DNA from: Eledone cirrhosa
Taxonomy: Eukaryota
DNA: 64,000 bases
Reading direction: 5' to 3'
Assembly: GCA_964016885.1 (NCBI GenBank)
Contig: OZ024759.1
Span: 28,272,001 to 28,336,000 of the forward strand
Below the pieces are notes generated by a model, which saw nothing but the letters and a program-made list of their open reading frames with translations, made no database searches and was not told the origin of the DNA. Every line of letters starts with the position of its first letter. Position 1 is the stretch's first letter. Made by a program: the position numbers and the translations under genes. Shown piece by piece: positions 2,386 through 54,920 of the stretch.

Positions 2386-3565
2386 TGTTACTCCAAAGAC
2401 CCTTGGGTCTTTGGAGTAACATTGGAGTAACAGTAGAGATCGGAGATCAGATAGTCACTCCAGGTAGAGCTGCTGTTGGAGTAACAGTGTAGAGATCGGA
2501 GATCAGAGAGTCACTCCAGGTAGAGCTGCTGTTGGAGTAACATTGGAGTAACAGTGTAGAGATCGGAGATCAGAGAGTCACTCCAGGTAGAGCTGCTGTT
2601 GGAGTAACATTGGAGTAACAGTAGAGATCGGAGATCAGAGAGTCACTCCAGGTAGAGCTGCTGTTGGAGTAACATTGGAGTAACAGTGTAGAGATCGGAG
2701 ATCAGAGAGTCACTCCAGGTAGAGCTGCTGTTGGAGTAACATTGGAGTAACAGTAGAGATCGGAGATCAGAGAGTCACTCCAGGTAGAGCTGCTGTTGGA
2801 GTAACATTGGAGTAACAGTAGAGATCGGACATCAGAGAGTCACTCCAGGTAGAGCTGCTGTTGGAGTAACATTGGAGTAACAGTGTAGAGATCGGAGATC
2901 AGAGAGTCACTCCAGGTAGAGCTGCTGTTGGAGTAACATTGGAGTAACAGTAGAGATCGGACATCAGATAGTCACTCCAGGTAGAGCTGCTGTTGGAGTA
3001 ACATTGGAGTAACAGTGTAGAGATCGGAGATCAGAGAGTCACTCCAGGTAGAGCTGCTGTTGGAGTAACATTGGAGTAACAGTAGAGATCGGAGATCAGA
3101 GAGTCACTCCAGGTAGAGCTGCTGTTGGAGTAACATTGGAGTAACAGTGTAGAGATCGGAGATCAGAGAGTCACTCCAGGTAGAGCTGCTGTTGGAGTAA
3201 CATTGGAGTAACAGTAGAGATCGGACATCAGAGAGTCACTCCAGGTAGAGCTGCTGTTGGAGTAACATTGGAGTAACAGTGTAGAGATCGGAGATCAGAG
3301 AGTCACTCCAGGTAGAGCTGCTGTTGGAGTAACAGTAGAGATCGGAGATCAGAGAGTCACTCCAGGTAGAGCTGCTGTGGGAGTAACAGTGTAGAGATCG
3401 GGGATCAGAGAGTCACTCCAGGTAGAGCTGCTGTTGGAGTAACATTGGAGTAACAGTGTAGAGATCGGAGATCAGAGAGTCACTCCAGGTAGAGCTGCTG
3501 TTGGAGTAACATTGGAGTAACAGTGTAGAGATCGGAGATCAGAGAGTCACTCCAGGTAGAGCTGC
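2386..3565 (+). repeat. Minisatellite, about 18 units of 54-67 bp (mostly alternating 65/67), headed by a perfect hairpin
   Basis: Unit TTGGAGTAACA-TTGGAGTAACA-(GT)GTAGAGATCGGAGATCAGAGAGTCACTCCAGGTAGAGCTGCTG. Hairpin TGTTACTCCAAAGACCC-TT-GGGTCTTTGGAGTAACA at 2386-2421. Confidence 0.9.
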
Positions 3566-4359: not shown

Positions 4360-4570
4360 TGTATGTAAGTATGTATGTATACGTACATACATATATGTAT
4401 ACAGACGTACAGTAGTATGTATATATACATACATGCACACATATATATATGCACGTATCGGTTTACCGAACAATTATTACAATGCTCGGTTTGTCCGTTT
4501 GTAAACAAACAAACAGCCCGAATTACGCCGTACAGTGTTTAGGCAACCACGTCACCTTTTTGTTCAACAC
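4360..4570 (-). mobile_element. Diverged, 5'-truncated single copy of the 426-bp family
   Basis: Colinear similarity to the array unit (GACGTACAGTAGTATG...GCACGTAT...CCGAACA...AATGCTCGG...GTAAACAAAC...GCAACCAC...TTTGTTCAACAC) with substitutions and indels. It stops within the extended stem I and runs into (TA)n. Confidence 0.8.
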
Positions 4571-15010: not shown

Positions 15011-16125
15011 TCTTCTTCTTCTTCTTCTTCTTCTTCTTCTTCTTCTTCTTCTTCTTCTTCTTCTTCTTCTTCTTCTTCTTCTTCTTCTTCTTCTTCTTCT
15101 TTTTCTTTTTCTTTTTCTTCTTCTTCGCTCACTTATTCCTGAGAGAGTCATGGGAACAGAGTCCTCAAACATTCCTTCCAGCGCGTCCTGTCAGAAGCAA
15201 CCATCACCAACTGATCCGGCTGGATCCCCAAGCGTGACCAGCCAAGCTCATGGATGTTATCCAACCATCTTTCTCGAGGTCTATCTCTGGGTCTCTTGCC
15301 GGTTGGTTTGGTTTTGTCCGGAAAATCTGTCCTGCGATTCTCTCCTGAGACATTATAACCACATGCCCATGGTACCAGAGCTGTGACCAGTCAATTCGGA
15401 GATGTAGCGGCTCTACCTGGAGCAACTCTCCAGCAATTCTTTCCTGAGACATTCTAACCACATGCCCATAGTACCAGAGCCGTGGTCTCTCAATTCGAAG
15501 AAGTGGCGTCTCTATCTGGAGCAACTCTCCAGCAATTCTTTCCTGTGTCATTCTGACCGGATGCCCATAGTATCAGAGCTGGAGAAGTAGCGACACTATT
15601 CGGAGAAGTAGCGGCACTATCCGGAGTGACTCCTGTGATTCTCTCCTGGAACATTCTAACCACATCCCCATAGTATCAGAGCTGGTGTACTATCAATTCG
15701 GAGAAGTAGCGGCACTATCCGGAGTGACTCCTGTGATTCTCTCCTGGAACATTCTAACCACATCCCCATAGTATCAGAGCTGGTGTACTATCAATTCGGA
15801 GAAGTAGCGGCACTATCCGGAGTGACTCCTGTGATTCTCTCCTGGAACATTCTAACCACATCCCCATAGTATCAGAGCTGGTGTACTATCAATTCGGAGA
15901 AGTAGCGGCACTATCCGGAGTGACTCCTGTGATTCTCTCCTGGAACATTCTAACCACATCCCCATAGTATCAGAGCTGGTGTACTATCAATTCGGAGAAG
16001 TAGCGGCACTATCCGGAGTGACTCCTGTGATTCTCTCCTGAAACATGCTAACCACAACCCCATAGTATCAGAGCTGGTGTACTCTCAGTTCGGAGAAGTA
16101 GCGGCTCTACATGGAGTGACTCTAT
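15011..16125 (-). mobile_element. Same RTE-like 3'-end family with (GAA)n tail and internal tandem amplification (98-bp units at 15601-16125)
   Basis: Minus-strand ORF ..LRIERPRLWYYGHVVRMSQERIAG.. is repeated. CGGAGAAGTAG recurs at 15601, 15699, 15797, 15895, 15993 and 16091. (TTC)n at 15011-15125. Confidence 0.8.
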
Positions 16126-20040: not shown

Positions 20041-20458
<418 letters not shown>

Positions 20459-20604
20459 ATATATATATATATATTTATATATATGTATATATAAATATAT
20501 GCACAGAGATTTGTATAAATATATATATATACATATATATAAATATATATATATATATATTTATATTTATAAATATATATATATATGTATATACATATAT
20601 ATAA

Positions 20605-23799: not shown

Positions 23800-24066
23800 G
23801 TGAAGGTGCATGGCTTAGTGGTTACAGCATTGGGCTTGCAATCGAAAGGTTGTGAGTTCAATTCTCAGACTGGGTGATGTGTTGTTTCCTTGAGCAAGAC
23901 ACTTTATTTCACGTTGCTCCAGTTTACTCAGCTGTAGAAATGAGATGAGGAGGTACCGGCCTGCCCACCCAGCCAGTGGGATGGCGTTATCTTATGGCTA
24001 AAACAGCACGATGTGCTGTGACCAGCGGCACCGAATGGTCGCCCAACAGACTGGTCGGTCAAGGTG
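23800..24066 (+). mobile_element. tRNA-derived SINE
   Basis: A box TGGCTTAGTGG, B box GAGTTCAATTC, then the conserved core TCCTTGAGCAAGACACTTTATTTCACGTTGCTCCAG. Confidence 0.8.
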
Positions 24067-24096: not shown

Positions 24097-24220
24097 AACA
24101 AGGAACAAAGAGGGTGTGGTAAGATACCAGGTGGACCATAACGTACCAGAGCACTCAATACGTTCGGATCTAGCCGTCGAAACTGCCGGAGCTGAACCGT
24201 CGGGGCCCTGACTATTTTCA
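24097..24220. mobile_element. Family B copy with inversion
   Basis: Reverse-oriented tail joined to GGATCTAGCCGTCGAAACTGCCGGAGCTGAACCGTCGGGG. Confidence 0.65.
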
Positions 24221-24244
24221 TATATATATATATATATATATATA

Positions 24245-24422
24245 GGAATTTGTTTTTGCAAAGTTTTTGATATGAAATTGTGTGTCGAAACAAATATTGT
24301 TATACTTGGGGAGGGTCATATTGTTATAATATTGCCAGAAATAATAACACACAGTGAGTGTGTTCTGTTATTATTTCTGTCAATAATACAACAATATGAC
24401 CCTCCCCAAGTATAACAATATA
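24245..24422. repeat. Family C palindrome-plus-tail
   Basis: ATATTGTTATACTTGGGGAGGGTCATATTG...CAATATGACCCTCCCCAAGTATAACAATAT inverted arms. Confidence 0.8.
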
Positions 24423-38967: not shown

Positions 38968-39674
38968 ATATATATATATATATATATCCAAAATTAAAAT
39001 TAAGGGTTGTCATGTCTGAGAGACATGCGCCATATCCACTATAGAATAAGCTCAAAGATTCCAATGAATAGATCCGAGCATTACATATCAACTAGAAATA
39101 GATTGACAGATATATAAAATAAACATATGAAACAATCACAGGGGGGAATAATTTGTAAAGAATGTAAGCACACCTAGCTAGGTAGGTAACTAATTAAAGT
39201 TTAACTAAAACTTCAAATATTGATACCTTTTAAAATGATTAATCTTCTTTGTATATATTTCTTTAAGTAAGAAATATATTTCACCAATTAATCCGTAAAT
39301 CACAGCAGTTAAATTCCGGATGGTCACCAAAGGAGAAGAAGATAACTATCTGCGTTTACAAACCAAATGCAAATCTGTGAATGACACGAACCACGTGTTG
39401 CATTTTTTTTAAAATACACACATTGCACAACGTCATCCCAGTGGCGTGAATAGGACCATCGACAGCCAGAAATAGCAGCCGAGTCTATTCAACTGAATTA
39501 GCTCAACAATCAAGGGACCGTATATATATATCCAAAATTAAAATTAAGGGTTGTCATGTCTGAGAGTATTTGAAGTTCTAGTTAAACTTTAATTAGTTAC
39601 CTCCCTAGCTATGTGTGCTTACATTCTTTACAAATTATTCCCTGTGATTATTTCATATGTTTATTATATATATA

Positions 39675-39960
39675 TATAATTCGTTTTTTAATTTGTTTTG
39701 CGAGATGTTTTATTTGAAAACGTGTTTTGAAACAGATATTGTTGTACTTTGGGAGGGTCATGCTGCCAATAAAAACACACGAACCTGTTGCGATTCATTT
39801 CAATTTATTATAAATTTCCGGTTGGTTGGTTGTTTCGTTCCATAACAGGAAGGTTCTTTGTATATTGTCAAAGCTCTTTCGGCACTACACATTCTGTCAC
39901 CTCCTCAGTGACTAGGTTTTAATTCTGTGTCTCTCCTTTTTTCTGTCCTGCACCATCTTG
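39675..39960 (-). mobile_element. Family C pLTR-like element with hammerhead at 39867-39912
   Basis: Minus strand GTCA-CTGAGGA-GGTGAC..GTGCC-GAAA-GAGCTT-TGAC. Homologous copy at 54666-54925 (hammerhead 54855-54897), with related tails at 1050-1106 and 24245-24422. Confidence 0.65.
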
Positions 39961-40028
39961 CTTTTGTGTGACAACACACAACACACATATATATAATTGA
40001 ATAAGGAGGCATATACTGTAAGTTTATG

Positions 40029-40060
<32 letters not shown>

Positions 40061-40287
40061 GCGAATACTTTAGGCTGTGATCATGACACTGCTATCTCAG
40101 AAACTATATAAGCATGCCTGATAGGTTTCTGGGGATTTTTATCCATCATCAGTGGCGCTTAGTCATTCGGTAGTGAGTTGAGAATAAACTAAAAGCTTAA
40201 ATGGTCTTTTGCGTATGAAACATTGCTTGTAGAAGCTCTTGGCATATGTGTACATAAAACGTATATGTCTATATATATATATACATA

Positions 40288-40330
<43 letters not shown>

Positions 40331-40408
40331 GCATACATATATATATACTTATTTGTGTATATATATATATACATATATATATACACATACACATACATAT
40401 ATATATAC

Positions 40409-40485
<77 letters not shown>

Positions 40486-40508
40486 TATACATATATATAT
40501 ACATATAA

Positions 40509-40551
<43 letters not shown>

Positions 40552-40797
40552 TATACATATATATATATATATACATATACGTATATACACATATATAAAC
40601 CTATATAAATGTATATACATATACATACATATATACATACATATATGTATATATATATATATATATATACATATATGTATATATATATATATATATACAT
40701 ATATGTATATATATATATATATATATACATATACAGTTATATATATATATATATACATATATACATACATATATAGTTTTATATATATATATATACA

Positions 40798-43524
40798 TAT
40801 ATAAGTATGTACACGTACATACATATATGTATACCGACGTACAGTAGTATGTATATATATATATATATACATACATGCACACATATATATATGCACGTAT
40901 GGATTCACCGAACATTTATTATAATGCTCGGTGTGTTTGTAAACAAACATCCCGTATTAAGCCGTAGTGTCTAGCAACCACCGTTGCTCGTTTGTTCAAC
41001 ACTGACAAAGGAACGCTGTACTAGTTTCAAGCTTGTTAGCTATCATCAGCAACGTATACCTTCCTGCCAGATTGTTGAACGTATATACTTACCTTATGCA
41101 TATTAACGGCTGAGTAGCCCAATATGCATATCGAGTGGGTTAATCGGCCGGGTGCACCGAAAACGATAAACGGAAAAAATGAAACGATATTTCATTTCCC
41201 ACTCTTAGTACGGCTGTTACTTAAATATAAGTATGTACACGTACATACATATATGTATACCGACGTACAGTAGTATGTATATATATATATATATACATAC
41301 ATGCACACATATATATATGCACGTATGGATTCACCGAACATTTATTATAATGCTCGGTGTGTTTGTAAACAAACATCCCGTATTAAGCCGTAGTGTCTAG
41401 CAACCACCGTTGCTCGTTTGTTCAACACTGACAAAGGAACGCTGTACTAGTTTCAAGCTTGTTAGCTATCATCAGCAACGTATACCTTCCTGCCAGATTG
41501 TTGAACGTATATACTTACCTTATGCATATTAACGGCTGAGTAGCCCAATATGCATATCGAGTGGGTTAATCGGCCGGGTGCACCGAAAACGATAAACGGA
41601 AAAAATGAAACGATATTTCATTTCCCACTCTTAGTACGGCTGTTACTTAAATATAAGTATGTACACGTACATACATATATGTATACCGACGTACAGTAGT
41701 ATGTATATATATATATATATACATACATGCACACATATATATATGCACGTATGGATTCACCGAACATTTATTATAATGCTCGGTGTGTTTGTAAACAAAC
41801 ATCCCGTATTAAGCCGTAGTGTCTAGCAACCACCGTTGCTCGTTTGTTCAACACTGACAAAGGAACGCTGTACTAGTTTCAAGCTTGTTAGCTATCATCA
41901 GCAACGTATACCTTCCTGCCAGATTGTTGAACGTATATACTTACCTTATGCATATTAACGGCTGAGTAGCCCAATATGCATATCGAGTGGGTTAATCGGC
42001 CGGGTGCACCGAAAACGATAAACGGAAAAAATGAAACGATATTTCATTTCCCACTCTTAGTACGGCTGTTACTTAAATATAAGTATGTACACGTACATAC
42101 ATATATGTATACCGACGTACAGTAGTATGTATATATATATATATATACATACATGCACACATATATATATGCACGTATGGATTCACCGAACATTTATTAT
42201 AATGCTCGGTGTGTTTGTAAACAAACATCCCGTATTAAGCCGTAGTGTCTAGCAACCACCGTTGCTCGTTTGTTCAACACTGACAAAGGAACGCTGTACT
42301 AGTTTCAAGCTTGTTAGCTATCATCAGCAACGTATACCTTCCTGCCAGATTGTTGAACGTATATACTTACCTTATGCATATTAACGGCTGAGTAGCCCAA
42401 TATGCATATCGAGTGGGTTAATCGGCCGGGTGCACCGAAAACGATAAACGGAAAAAATGAAACGATATTTCATTTCCCACTCTTAGTACGGCTGTTACTT
42501 AAATATAAGTATGTACACGTACATACATATATGTATACCGACGTACAGTAGTATGTATATATATATATATATACATACATGCACACATATATATATGCAC
42601 GTATGGATTCACCGAACATTTATTATAATGCTCGGTGTGTTTGTAAACAAACATCCCGTATTAAGCCGTAGTGTCTAGCAACCACCGTTGCTCGTTTGTT
42701 CAACACTGACAAAGGAACGCTGTACTAGTTTCAAGCTTGTTAGCTATCATCAGCAACGTATACCTTCCTGCCAGATTGTTGAACGTATATACTTACCTTA
42801 TGCATATTAACGGCTGAGTAGCCCAATATGCATATCGAGTGGGTTAATCGGCCGGGTGCACCGAAAACGATAAACGGAAAAAATGAAACGATATTTCATT
42901 TCCCACTCTTAGTACGGCTGTTACTTAAATATAAGTATGTACACGTACATACATATATGTATACCGACGTACAGTAGTATGTATATATATATATGTATAC
43001 ATACATGCACACATATATATATGCACGTATGGATTCACCGAACATTTATTATAATGCTCGGTGTGTTTGTAAACAAACATCCCGTATTAAGCCGTAGTGT
43101 CTAGCAACCACCGTTGCTCGTTTGTTCAACACTGACAAAGGAACGCTGTACTAGTTTCAAGCTTGTTAGCTATCATCAGCAACGTATACCTTCCTGCCAG
43201 ATTGTTGAACGTATATACTTACCTTATGCATATTAACGGCTGAGTAGCCCAATATGCATATCGAGTGGGTTAATCGGCCGGGTGCACCGAAAACGATAAA
43301 CGGAAAAAATGAAACGATATTTCATTTCCCACTCTTAGTACGGCTGTTACTTAAATATAAGTATGTACACGTACATACATATATGTATACCGACGTACAG
43401 TAGTATGTATATATATATATATATACATACATGCACACATATATATATGCACGTATGGATTCACCGAACATTTATTATAATGCTCGGTGTGTTTGTAAAC
43501 AAACATCCCGTATTAAGCCGTAGT
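40798..43524 (-). mobile_element. Left arm of 426-bp hammerhead-bearing tandem array (retrozyme / Penelope pLTR-like concatemer), about 6.4 units
   Basis: Marker CCGACGTACAG recurs at 40834, 41260, 41686, 42112, 42538, 42964 and 43390 (exact 426 spacing). Reverse-complement hammerhead core TCATCAG occurs at 41043, 41469, 41895, 42321, 42747 and 43173. No long ORF. Confidence 0.9.
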
Positions 43525-43528
43525 ACAG

Positions 43529-45946
43529 TGAAACTAGTACAGCGTTCCTTTGTCAGTGTTGAACAAACGAGCAACGGTGGTTGCTAGACACTACGGCTTA
43601 ATACGGGATGTTTGTTTACAAACACACCGAGCATTATAATAAATGTTCGGTGAATCCATACGTGCATATATATATGTGTGCATGTATGTATATATATATA
43701 TATATACATACTACTGTACGTCGGTATACATATATGTATGTACGTGTACATACTTATATTTAAGTAACAGCCGTACTAAGAGTGGGAAATGAAATATCGT
43801 TTCATTTTTTCCGTTTATCGTTTTCGGTGCACCCGGCCGATTAACCCACTCGATATGCATATTGGGCTACTCAGCCGTTAATATGCATAAGGTAAGTATA
43901 TACGTTCAACAATCTGGCAGGAAGGTATACGTTGCTGATGATAGCTAACAAGCTTGAAACTAGTACAGCGTTCCTTTGTCAGTGTTGAACAAACGAGCAA
44001 CGGTGGTTGCTAGACACTACGGCTTAATACGGGATGTTTGTTTACAAACACACCGAGCATTATAATAAATGTTCGGTGAATCCATACGTGCATATATATA
44101 TGTGTGCATGTATGTATATATATATATATATACATACTACTGTACGTCGGTATACATATATGTATGTACGTGTACATACTTATATTTAAGTAACAGCCGT
44201 ACTAAGAGTGGGAAATGAAATATCGTTTCATTTTTTCCGTTTATCGTTTTCGGTGCACCCGGCCGATTAACCCACTCGATATGCATATTGGGCTACTCAG
44301 CCGTTAATATGCATAAGGTAAGTATATACGTTCAACAATCTGGCAGGAAGGTATACGTTGCTGATGATAGCTAACAAGCTTGAAACTAGTACAGCGTTCC
44401 TTTGTCAGTGTTGAACAAACGAGCAACGGTGGTTGCTAGACACTACGGCTTAATACGGGATGTTTGTTTACAAACACACCGAGCATTATAATAAATGTTC
44501 GGTGAATCCATACGTGCATATATATATGTGTGCATGTATGTATATATATATATATATACATACTACTGTACGTCGGTATACATATATGTATGTACGTGTA
44601 CATACTTATATTTAAGTAACAGCCGTACTAAGAGTGGGAAATGAAATATCGTTTCATTTTTTCCGTTTATCGTTTTCGGTGCACCCGGCCGATTAACCCA
44701 CTCGATATGCATATTGGGCTACTCAGCCGTTAATATGCATAAGGTAAGTATATACGTTCAACAATCTGGCAGGAAGGTATACGTTGCTGATGATAGCTAA
44801 CAAGCTTGAAACTAGTACAGCGTTCCTTTGTCAGTGTTGAACAAACGAGCAACGGTGGTTGCTAGACACTACGGCTTAATACGGGATGTTTGTTTACAAA
44901 CACACCGAGCATTATAATAAATGTTCGGTGAATCCATACGTGCATATATATATGTGTGCATGTATGTATATATATATATATACATACTACTGTACGTCGG
45001 TATACATATATGTATGTACGTGTACATACTTATATTTAAGTAACAGCCGTACTAAGAGTGGGAAATGAAATATCGTTTCATTTTTTCCGTTTATCGTTTT
45101 CGGTGCACCCGGCCGATTAACCCACTCGATATGCATATTGGGCTACTCAGCCGTTAATATGCATAAGGTAAGTATATACGTTCAACAATCTGGCAGGAAG
45201 GTATACGTTGCTGATGATAGCTAACAAGCTTGAAACTAGTACAGCGTTCCTTTGTCAGTGTTGAACAAACGAGCAACGGTGGTTGCTAGACACTACGGCT
45301 TAATACGGGATGTTTGTTTACAAACACACCGAGCATTATAATAAATGTTCGGTGAATCCATACGTGCATATATATATGTGTGCATGTATGTATATATATA
45401 TATATATACATACTACTGTACGTCGGTATACATATATGTATGTACGTGTACATACTTATATTTAAGTAACAGCCGTACTAAGAGTGGGAAATGAAATATC
45501 GTTTCATTTTTTCCGTTTATCGTTTTCGGTGCACCCGGCCGATTAACCCACTCGATATGCATATTGGGCTACTCAGCCGTTAATATGCATAAGGTAAGTA
45601 TATACGTTCAACAATCTGGCAGGAAGGTATACGTTGCTGATGATAGCTAACAAGCTTGAAACTAGTACAGCGTTCCTTTGTCAGTGTTGAACAAACGAGC
45701 AACGGTGGTTGCTAGACACTACGGCTTAATACGGGATGTTTGTTTACAAACACACCGAGCATTATAATAAATGTTCGGTGAATCCATACGTGCATATATA
45801 TATGTGTGCATGTATGTATATATATATATATATACATACTACTGTACGTCGGTATACATATATGTATGTACGTGTACATACTTATATTTAAGTAACAGCC
45901 GTACTAAGAGTGGGAAATGAAATATCGTTTCATTTTTTCCGTTTAT
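43529..45946 (+). mobile_element. Right arm (inverted orientation) of the same 426-bp array, about 5.7 units
   Basis: Reverse complement of the left arm. CTGATGA cores at 43935, 44361, 44787, 45211 and 45637; one unit is 424 bp because of a TA-dinucleotide loss. The arm starts inside a hammerhead (TGAAACTAGTA at 43529). Confidence 0.9.
43904..43990 (+). ncRNA. Type I hammerhead ribozyme (representative of 11 complete copies in the array)
   Basis: Stem I ACGTTG/CAGCGT, extended by AAGG/CCTT, CTGGCA/TGTCAG and GTTCAACA/TGTTGAAC. Core CTGATGA (43935-43941). Stem II AGCT-aaca-AGCT, then GAAA. Minimal palindromic stem III ACTAGT. Predicted GUA cleavage after 43965. Confidence 0.85.
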
Positions 45947-45970
45947 ACATATATAGTTATATATATATAG

Positions 45971-50170: not shown

Positions 50171-50615
50171 CACTCCCACAATTGAAAGAACTATTTCGGC
50201 CGCCGACCTCTGCTTGACCGACCCCATTTCACGCGCACGCGCGCTCTGCTGAATACCTCAGATATTCAAAACAACAAACAGCGGAGGACACGTTTCGCAC
50301 CTTTCCGACAGACACCCCCCCCCCCCCCCCCCCGGAAAAAAAACCCCAGTTGATGGATGTGAATCCGAAATATATAGGGACAATTAAATCTCTCCCAAGG
50401 TAACTCTATCTCGTGTTATTATTTTTATTTTTATCCTTTACGCTCTTTCCTACATTCTTCTACACGCTACAGTCTTCTACACGCCACACATCTCAACGTA
50501 CACCCACTTACATCTCACTCTCCACCACCGGATCTTGTTACCCGGAGATATACCCATCTGCATTGTTGGGGCTTCCAAACGACTTAAAGAAATGTACCAT
50601 ATATATATATATATA

Positions 50616-50819
50616 GTTTTAATATAGAAGAGCTTCTACAGGACTAGAACTGTTTAATTCGTGAGAAATCATCAGGAAGCTCCTGATGCTTCCTGATGAT
50701 TTCTCACGAATGAAACAGTTCTAGTCCTGTAGAAGCTCTTCTATATTAAAACTTTTATACCCTGCTATGTATTGAGTACCTTACTTACTGTGGTTACCTC
50801 CGATTCAACCCAGAATAAC
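50616..50819 (+). mobile_element. Palindromic short element (family A) with a complete type I hammerhead at 50688-50736
   Basis: Stem I GCTTC/GAAGC, CTGATGA, stem II TTC-tcac-GAA, GAAA, stem III ACAG/CTGT, GUA site. Arms 50616-50680 and 50688-50752, plus a one-sided tail. Confidence 0.8.
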
Positions 50820-54233: not shown

Positions 54234-54665
<432 letters not shown>

Positions 54666-54920
54666 TTCGTTTTTGAATTTGTTTTGCAAGATTTTTTATC
54701 TGAAAACTTGTGTTGAAACATATTGTTATACTTTGGGAGGGTCATGCTGTCAATAAAAACACACGCACCTGTCGATTTTCCCTCCAATTTATTATAAATT
54801 TCTGGTTGTTTGGTTAGTTGATTCGTTGGATAACCGGCTAGTTATTTATATATTGTCAAAACTCTTTCATCACACATTCTGTGACCTCCTCAGTGACTTG
54901 GTTTTTATTTTGTGTCTGTC

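Follow-up and report, generated by a model that had tools for sequence, protein, structure and literature searches.

Introduction

Animal non-LTR retrozymes, which lack long terminal repeats (LTRs), have units of about 150-970 bp with a GC content below 50% (Cervera and de la Pena 2020, PMC7229834; Li, Clavereau and Pollet 2026, 10.64898/2026.07.22.740005; PMC7761336). In the main texts of these papers, mobilization by Penelope-like elements (PLEs) is proposed from co-occurrence and from similarity to the pseudo-LTRs (pLTRs) of PLEs, the pLTR of a coding PLE being similar to 24 of 57 Xenopus retrozyme families. Rolling-circle copying is presented there as a model, and both the mobilizing enzyme and the question of whether circles are the template are left open. 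Here, we describe a 426-bp family of non-coding hammerhead repeats in Eledone cirrhosa, starting from one locus in a 64,000-nucleotide stretch of contig OZ024759.1 (positions 28,272,001 to 28,336,000), which is called the window and whose own numbering is used below.

Endonuclease-bearing PLEs, as described in the main texts, leave 5′-truncated copies, an inverted copy placed head to head, a tail at one end only and (TA)n targets with 8-10-bp duplications where these are visible, and their pLTRs are sufficient for mobilization in trans (Craig et al. 2021, PMC8557442; Arkhipova et al. 2013, PMC3846280). How their tandem and inverted structures form is left open in PMC8557442. In vitro, the protein PAc (Poseidon, green anole) nicked and extended both DNA strands at an AT-rich target, the tail being the stretch between two internal reverse transcription starts; cleavage was not needed, and the protein was predicted to be a dimer (Frangieh et al. 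2024, PMC11167929). The main texts of the literature searched held no account of the 426-bp family, of inverted retrozyme pairs, or of work joining retrozymes with the PLE layout, and no genomic evidence for a single-molecule template. Each of the two, retrozymes and the PLE layout, has been published on its own; the present analysis adds evidence for a single template and on A>G changes.

Structure of the locus

The locus represents a single young insertion of a non-coding hammerhead repeat, whose two arms lie back to back and whose two outer ends are fixed. The left arm (40799 to 43524, minus strand) contained 6.4 units, with its outer (3′) end at unit position 286, the “short” end, and its inner end at position 117, position 1 of the unit being window position 43900. 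The right arm (43529 to 45946, plus strand) contained 5.7 units, with its inner end at position 56 and its outer (3′) end at position 345, the “long” end. Both arrays had a tandem period of 426 bp with 99% matches, and the two arms were 99-100% complementary over up to 1,454 nt. An earlier reading made from the letters of this DNA, the sequence-only reading, had described about 12 non-coding units, 6.4 on the minus and 5.7 on the plus strand, forming a giant head-to-head palindrome, and the arrays and their complementarity bore this out. The units at the locus differed by one substitution (42995) and by one TA tract shorter by 2 nt, and by nothing else. The arms were separated by four filler bases (43525 to 43528), which continued the preceding bases like the cut-site stretch of the unit itself and are therefore likely to be a small templated slip.

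The right end alone carried a tail of 59 nt (45888 to 45946, plus strand, unit positions 287-345) with a hairpin just before its end, as can be compared with Figure 2 of PMC8557442 and with PMC11167929. On both sides, the ends of the element overlapped an 11-nt sequence that could be a target-site duplication. The left copy (40792 to 40802) had four bases in common with the end of the element and lay within compound (TA)n of 40262-40798, and the right copy (45944 to 45954) had three bases in common and lay within compound (TA)n reaching 46077. It had been claimed that the same sequence in a (TA)n tract flanks both ends; this held for the 11-mer, while the sequence named for it, CATATATAGTT, proved to be an interruption recurring within the compound microsatellite.

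Hammerhead motif and predicted monomer

Judged by motif and predicted fold, each unit carries a complete type I hammerhead, and self-cutting is predicted. In the copy at 43904 to 43990 (plus strand), a long bulged stem I was formed by 43904-43934 with 43966-43990, followed by the core at 43935-43941, a 4-bp stem II after a U·U (43943-43954), GAAA (43956-43959) and a 2-bp palindromic stem III (43959-43964). The cut is predicted after 43965, between unit positions 66 and 67. All of the 11 hammerhead motifs reported earlier were located by their CTGATGA cores, five on the plus strand, where they repeat at 44361, 44787, 45211 and 45637, and six on the minus strand within 40994 to 43210 (cores at 41049, 41475, 41901, 42327, 42753 and 43179). 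Stem I, with the pairing first proposed for it, and stem II were both present in the predicted fold (z -2.64, with 2 of 200 shuffles equally stable), and their pair probabilities in the monomer and the whole circle were 0.44-0.95 and 0.9-1.0 for stems I and II. In 18 aligned, related copies, 94% of the hammerhead cells paired, one stem I pair occurred as G·U, U·G and A-U, and both the paired cells and the covariation score exceeded those of 500 of 500 shuffles.

The predicted monomer from cut site to cut site comprised 426 nt (43966 to 44391, plus strand). Folded as a circle, it reached -148.4 kcal/mol, against -100.1 ± 5.8 kcal/mol for 100 shuffles (z -8.3), a value to which its self-complementary TA-rich part contributes. 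The longest stop-free frame in a three-unit concatemer was 63 codons, and the GC content of the unit was about 38%. Like the animal retrozymes in the published main texts, the family thus has non-coding tandem units of a few hundred bases with less than 50% GC, one type I hammerhead per unit in consecutive units (6 + 5 in the window, two being the minimum for a retrozyme) and a stable, self-paired predicted circle, and is dispersed in thousands of copies in a genome that also holds PLEs. By these sequence criteria, the 426-bp family would be an animal non-LTR retrozyme, with cleavage and a circular RNA as predictions. The described retrozymes are direct tandems in those main texts, without inverted pairs or tails, whereas the insertions in Eledone cirrhosa carry the footprint of PLEs and haplotypes that point to a single template.

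The copy count suggested with the first interpretation gave 13,792 exact genome-wide matches to the 27-nt ribozyme core (0 for the control), and the 426-bp unit had at least 402 close matches in the genome. Extrapolation from the first 100 listed core matches gave about 7,000 loci. Unit length ranged from 420 to 538 across the family, and older subfamilies with units of 464-538 bp kept both outer ends and a tail of 59-68 nt. Part of the words of the unit occurred in sequencing runs from at least 11 organisms, and the run richest in them may come from the sample of the assembly itself. A decayed piece of this same family (81%) was present in the window at 4370-4570 (minus strand), corresponding to unit positions 83-283.

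Orientation, fixed outer ends and (TA)n target

The head-to-head palindrome is the rule for the 426-bp family, a point beyond the sequence-only reading, as are the 59-nt PLE-type tail by which the outer ends differ and the location of the starts away from the cut site. Among the first 100 listed of the core matches, opposite-strand neighbors within 1 kb were head to head in 19 cases and tail to tail in none. We sampled 139 regions: 38 were chosen for their similarity to the unit, 86 for a long end and 13 for a short end, and 2 were extensions. Arms below 90% or 80% identity, depending on the region set, and the duplicate pairs in L101 were left out. Of 84 adjacent head-to-head pairs in these regions, 68 had one outer end at 284-291 and the other at 341-346, with the short end on the left in 29 and on the right in 39. 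Clean inverted pairs were found in 27 of the 38 similarity-picked, 32 of the 86 long-end-picked and 5 of the 13 short-end-picked regions. Of 61 short ends, 52 had 286 as their last matching base; among the 98 long ends, a set picked on that end, the last match fell at 345 in 91. The only large tail-to-tail arrangement met, L014 22-6988, had ends at 384 and 380 and many single-base insertions in one arm, and is possibly two insertions or an assembly problem.

Both outer ends finish on TAT and have 3-5 bases in common with the (TA)n target. Junctions with (TA)n numbered 434 for the long end and 1,316 for the short end genome-wide, and 0 in the reversed controls; the short pattern also fits older copies. 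Among 45 listed pairs with (TA)n on both sides, the length of the duplication could be resolved in three (11, 15 and 7 nt including shared bases, the 11-mer being that of the window), and pure (TA)n precluded this in the other 42. With a truncated inverted copy head to head, a one-sided tail and an AT-rich microsatellite target with a short duplication, the pattern of the outer ends is the inverted-copy-plus-one-sided-tail footprint of PLEs. Unlike the endonuclease-bearing PLEs of the published main texts, the family has no reading frame, and both of its arms are concatemers of up to 16 units. The tail of 59 nt compares with 30-40 nt in published PLEs and 41-66 nt in the PLEs of this genome. 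The two internal starts on the RNA that delimit the tail and the AT-rich target are as in PAc; however, the starts of PAc were reported as non-homologous to the cut DNA and its RNA was linear and uncut, whereas the ends of the 426-bp family share bases with (TA)n and its starts lie 220 (position 286) and 279 nt (position 345) downstream of the predicted ribozyme cut.

The palindromes could also be compared with other ways of producing inverted copies. Twin priming of LINE-1 gives a head-to-head inversion whose 3′ ends point outward and whose junction shows short overlaps, the first cDNA stopping where the second was primed. The 426-bp family has the same orientation, outward 3′ ends and short overlaps; in contrast, its arms overlap in sequence out of register, poly(A) is absent and the second start is fixed. 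The register expected of the L1 type was not found, since only 3 of 50 long arms (2.9 expected) and 1 of 50 short arms (3.1 expected) stopped near the start of the other. Fold-back copying of a cDNA was impossible for 21 of the 68 pairs, including that of the window.

The layout, tail and target of the family, being those of PLEs, would also suit units that are merely pseudo-LTRs of a coding PLE and not an independent non-coding element. Such an origin is very improbable. With five PLE proteins as queries, no PLE reading frame was found inside any element of 101 regions, a small part of the family, and the matches lay in the flanks only, so the situation named in advance as contrary to an independent retrozyme, with all copies being pLTRs attached to a coding PLE, was not encountered in these regions. 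The array had no reverse transcriptase (RT) and GIY-YIG frame between pLTRs, as an autonomous PLE would have; the unit closes on itself head to tail, has no frame beyond the 63 codons, and was a terminal repeat in none of 57 PLE-centered regions (20 + 12 regions and 25 short loci, which covered only a few of many PLE families).

Even less credit can be given to the inversion being a fold-back artefact of sequencing or assembly, although the junction of the window is itself known from the assembly alone. The arms are not symmetric, their fixed end positions differ and so do their flanks, and the 84 pairs have different junctions. In addition, contigs of one public run contained at least 15 head-to-head joints at other places as well as TA joined at position 345, and contigs of another run contained TA joined at position 286.

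The proposal that a young insertion was primed on both strands of a (TA)n site gained support from the two fixed ends of the 68 pairs, from intact PLEs of this genome that have the same layout, and from the lack of a PLE frame inside the elements examined. Judging from these footprints, mobilization of the 426-bp retrozyme by a PLE-type machinery is very probable.

Template of the two arms

Both arms may be rolling-circle cDNAs made by a Penelope-type dimer from one ribozyme-cut circle, from two fixed starts, with adenosine-to-inosine (A-to-I) edits written into every unit; we assign this combined reading a probability of roughly 0.4. The part of it that concerns a single monomeric circular RNA as the template for both arms is, on the sequence patterns below, moderately likely.

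In 128 arms with a length of one unit or more, the inner ends were distributed uniformly round the unit (Rayleigh p 0.84), with one end at positions 64-70 against 2.1 expected. The cut site was crossed by 392 units, with one insertion or deletion at 60-73 against 3.2 expected. This lack of excess stops and indels implied that the template is continuous at the cut site and is thus either a circle or an uncut multimer. We rejected a cut, linear template one unit long, on which the enzyme would run off or jump to another template at the cut site, as no surplus of stops or indels was present there.

Arms of up to 16.6 units were haplotype-pure while the loci differed from each other: the haplotype was T/19 in all units of the window, C/19 in L013, T/17 in L015 and L016 and C/15 in most loci. 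Older arrays showed 0-3 changes within and up to 8-19 from the nearest other sampled array (L158 and L163). Haplotypes of 2-4 changes at L142, L145 and L144 matched only their own locus in 3 Gb (2, 3 and 3 genome matches for the three) and were present in every covering unit of both arms.

Among 103 multi-segment insertions, changes were tallied outside the TA tract, core N7, end regions and alleles at 20% or more in an older subfamily. On the ribozyme strand, A>G accounted for 7 of 21 private locus-fixed changes and for 23 of 294 single-unit changes (p 0.0016). A T stood 5′ of the changed base in 10 of 11 fixed A>G changes, where 37 of 102 would be expected, and five or more A>G changes were present in both arms of L142. 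The editing enzyme ADAR prefers a T neighbor 5′ of the edited A. Together, the haplotypes and the fixed changes lend the rolling-circle copying of a monomer, as suggested by the sequence-only reading, an indirect support that falls short of proof.

In the same PLE-type insertion, the template could instead have been a long, uncut RNA read through an existing array, with a slow or passenger ribozyme and no need of a circle, which we regard as unlikely. As far as the main texts go, the anole PLE uses uncut RNA as its dominant substrate (PMC11167929), and eight of nine Xenopus retrozyme dimers showed no cleavage in vitro (10.64898/2026.07.22.740005); both speak against a ribozyme-cut circle. The U·U at the base of stem II and the 2-bp stem III are like those of the weakly cleaving axolotl HHR_Amex2, and the lack of excess stops at the cut site would suit an uncut RNA as well. 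Some arrays are mixed (L017, L018, L113 and L146), and the median arm in the end-selected sets was about one unit (415 bp). However, the private haplotypes of L144 and L145 are carried by two consecutive units within one arm and also by the other arm, and no parent array with them is present in the assembly. Such repetition within and across arms requires a one-unit bottleneck. The pure 16-unit arms, which are of several haplotypes, would have to descend from pure parents of the same length, and if truncation acted alone, the arrays would become shorter in every round.

It is improbable, though less so than a pseudo-LTR origin, that short inverted insertions were later expanded and homogenized at the DNA level by unequal crossover, slippage and arm-to-arm conversion. 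A process of this kind is proposed for the birth of satellites from pLTRs in the main text of 10.64898/2026.07.22.740005; variants are shared block-wise in L018, L038 and L146, and the length of the TA tract differs between the units of older arrays. Against it, the arrays are dispersed over the extrapolated loci, near-identical, of non-integer arm length and fixed at their outer ends. Strong homogenization is disfavored by the 294 changes confined to single units, compared with 21 that are partly shared, and the fixed changes differ in spectrum from the single-unit changes.

The following observations weigh against rolling-circle copying of one edited, ribozyme-cut circle. Of the check by Rfam and folding advised earlier, only the folding was favorable: no Rfam hammerhead model matched the whole window at the gathering score or two units at E ≤ 10, where the 76 matches were TA-rich miRNA-like (microRNA-like) noise, and the hammerhead call accordingly rests on motif, fold and covariation. 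Two-sided changes occurred in only 2 of 30 pairs, which was matched by 450 of 500 shuffles, and sequencing runs labelled as RNA contained at most 0.05 of the words of the unit; the runs at 0.05-0.07 give no evidence of expression. The A>G excess was noted post hoc in small numbers and showed no strand asymmetry against T>C (7 vs 4, p 0.25). The partly shared variants mentioned above occurred in 8 of the 103 multi-segment insertions, the arms of L017 were of different haplotype with a switch within one arm, and the parent copy of the private haplotypes could be absent from this one assembly. Most long-end-picked regions lacking a clean inverted partner (all but 32 of the 86) held single truncated arms, and the 57 PLE-centered regions, with their few PLE families, contained no terminal repeat resembling the 426-bp unit, in contrast to the related pLTRs of many Xenopus families in the published main text.

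Two inverted pairs, L048 4019-6909 and L017 269-9630, joined two subfamilies or haplotypes with the switch inside one arm. Template switching or later conversion therefore also occurs, and the mixing in these loci may record template switching.

On the single-circle reading, the array would be transcribed, the hammerheads would cut, perhaps as dimers, and the 426-nt monomer would be closed into a circle, as in published retrozymes. A PLE protein, likely a dimer, would nick both strands of the (TA)n, the target seen at the ends of the insertions. Priming would take place at 345 from one nick and at 286 from the other, the two ends observed, each at a UAU able to pair with a TA end. Each copy would run round the template, cross the cut site without a scar and stop at a random place, which is the pattern found in the sequences. 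The two cDNA ends would then be joined by short overlaps or filler, giving the observed head-to-head palindrome with the 59-nt tail on one side. Changes on the one template molecule, some of them likely A-to-I edits, would be fixed in all units of both arms, as the haplotypes are.

If true, this would support directly, from the genome, the model in which animal retrozymes retrotranspose through a circular RNA, would explain the origin of the head-to-head palindromes of PLEs, and would mean that RNA edits are recorded in germ-line DNA. The family offers a sequence footprint for the enzyme moving animal retrozymes and indirect evidence on circles as the template, the points left open in the retrozyme papers, and represents thousands of long perfect palindromes made in one genome by a non-coding RNA. 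It also gives exact predictions for the published in vitro PLE assay, namely starts at 286 and 345, a (TA)n target, a 426-nt circle and an active candidate helper with a 60-nt tail.

PLEs of this genome and candidate helpers

Intact RT plus GIY-YIG frames were present in the genome; in the scan for helpers, 150 of 10,596 GIY-YIG candidates were scored. Two PLE families, N and P, had the same short/long head-to-head layout on (TA)n as the retrozyme, with tails of 60 and 41 nt, and a third, family A, had both ends and a tail of 66 nt. Family N encoded 1,281 aa in copies that were 99-100% identical and had a minimal hammerhead-like motif; its RT and GIY-YIG-like C-terminus were recognized by blastp and motif, with no Pfam match. 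The best local alignment of the 426-bp unit with the end of family N scored 95, the shuffle mean being 101. On age and tail length only, family N is a candidate helper. Family P encoded 900 aa, and the last bases of one of its ends were common to the 426-bp unit. The family N locus L179 2587-6429 was very young and intact, and many full-length frames of the family were seen.

Remnants of PLE terminal repeats were present in the window at 39665-39970, 54644-54910, 24220-24323 and 20139-20500, which belonged to family N (72-82%) and to an inverted pair of the L092 family. A small head-to-head palindrome at 50613-50753 contained a different hammerhead family (cores at 50675 on the minus and 50693 on the plus strand) and adjoined a TA tract; its motif was also found near PLE frames at L080, L083, L084 and L086. 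Another hammerhead repeat, with a spacing of 466 bp and again head to head, was present at L181 8895-9626 and was about 75% like the 426-bp family over the ribozyme only. Isolated CTGATGA...GAAA motifs at 539 (minus), 4943 (plus), 12103 (plus), 40152 (minus) and 58585 (plus) of the window may represent other hammerhead families. Minisatellites of 67 bp and 98 bp and a tRNA-like (transfer RNA-like) stretch at the Rfam cut-off, likely the head of a short interspersed nuclear element (SINE), were located at 2476-3565, 15330-16122 and 23809-23872.

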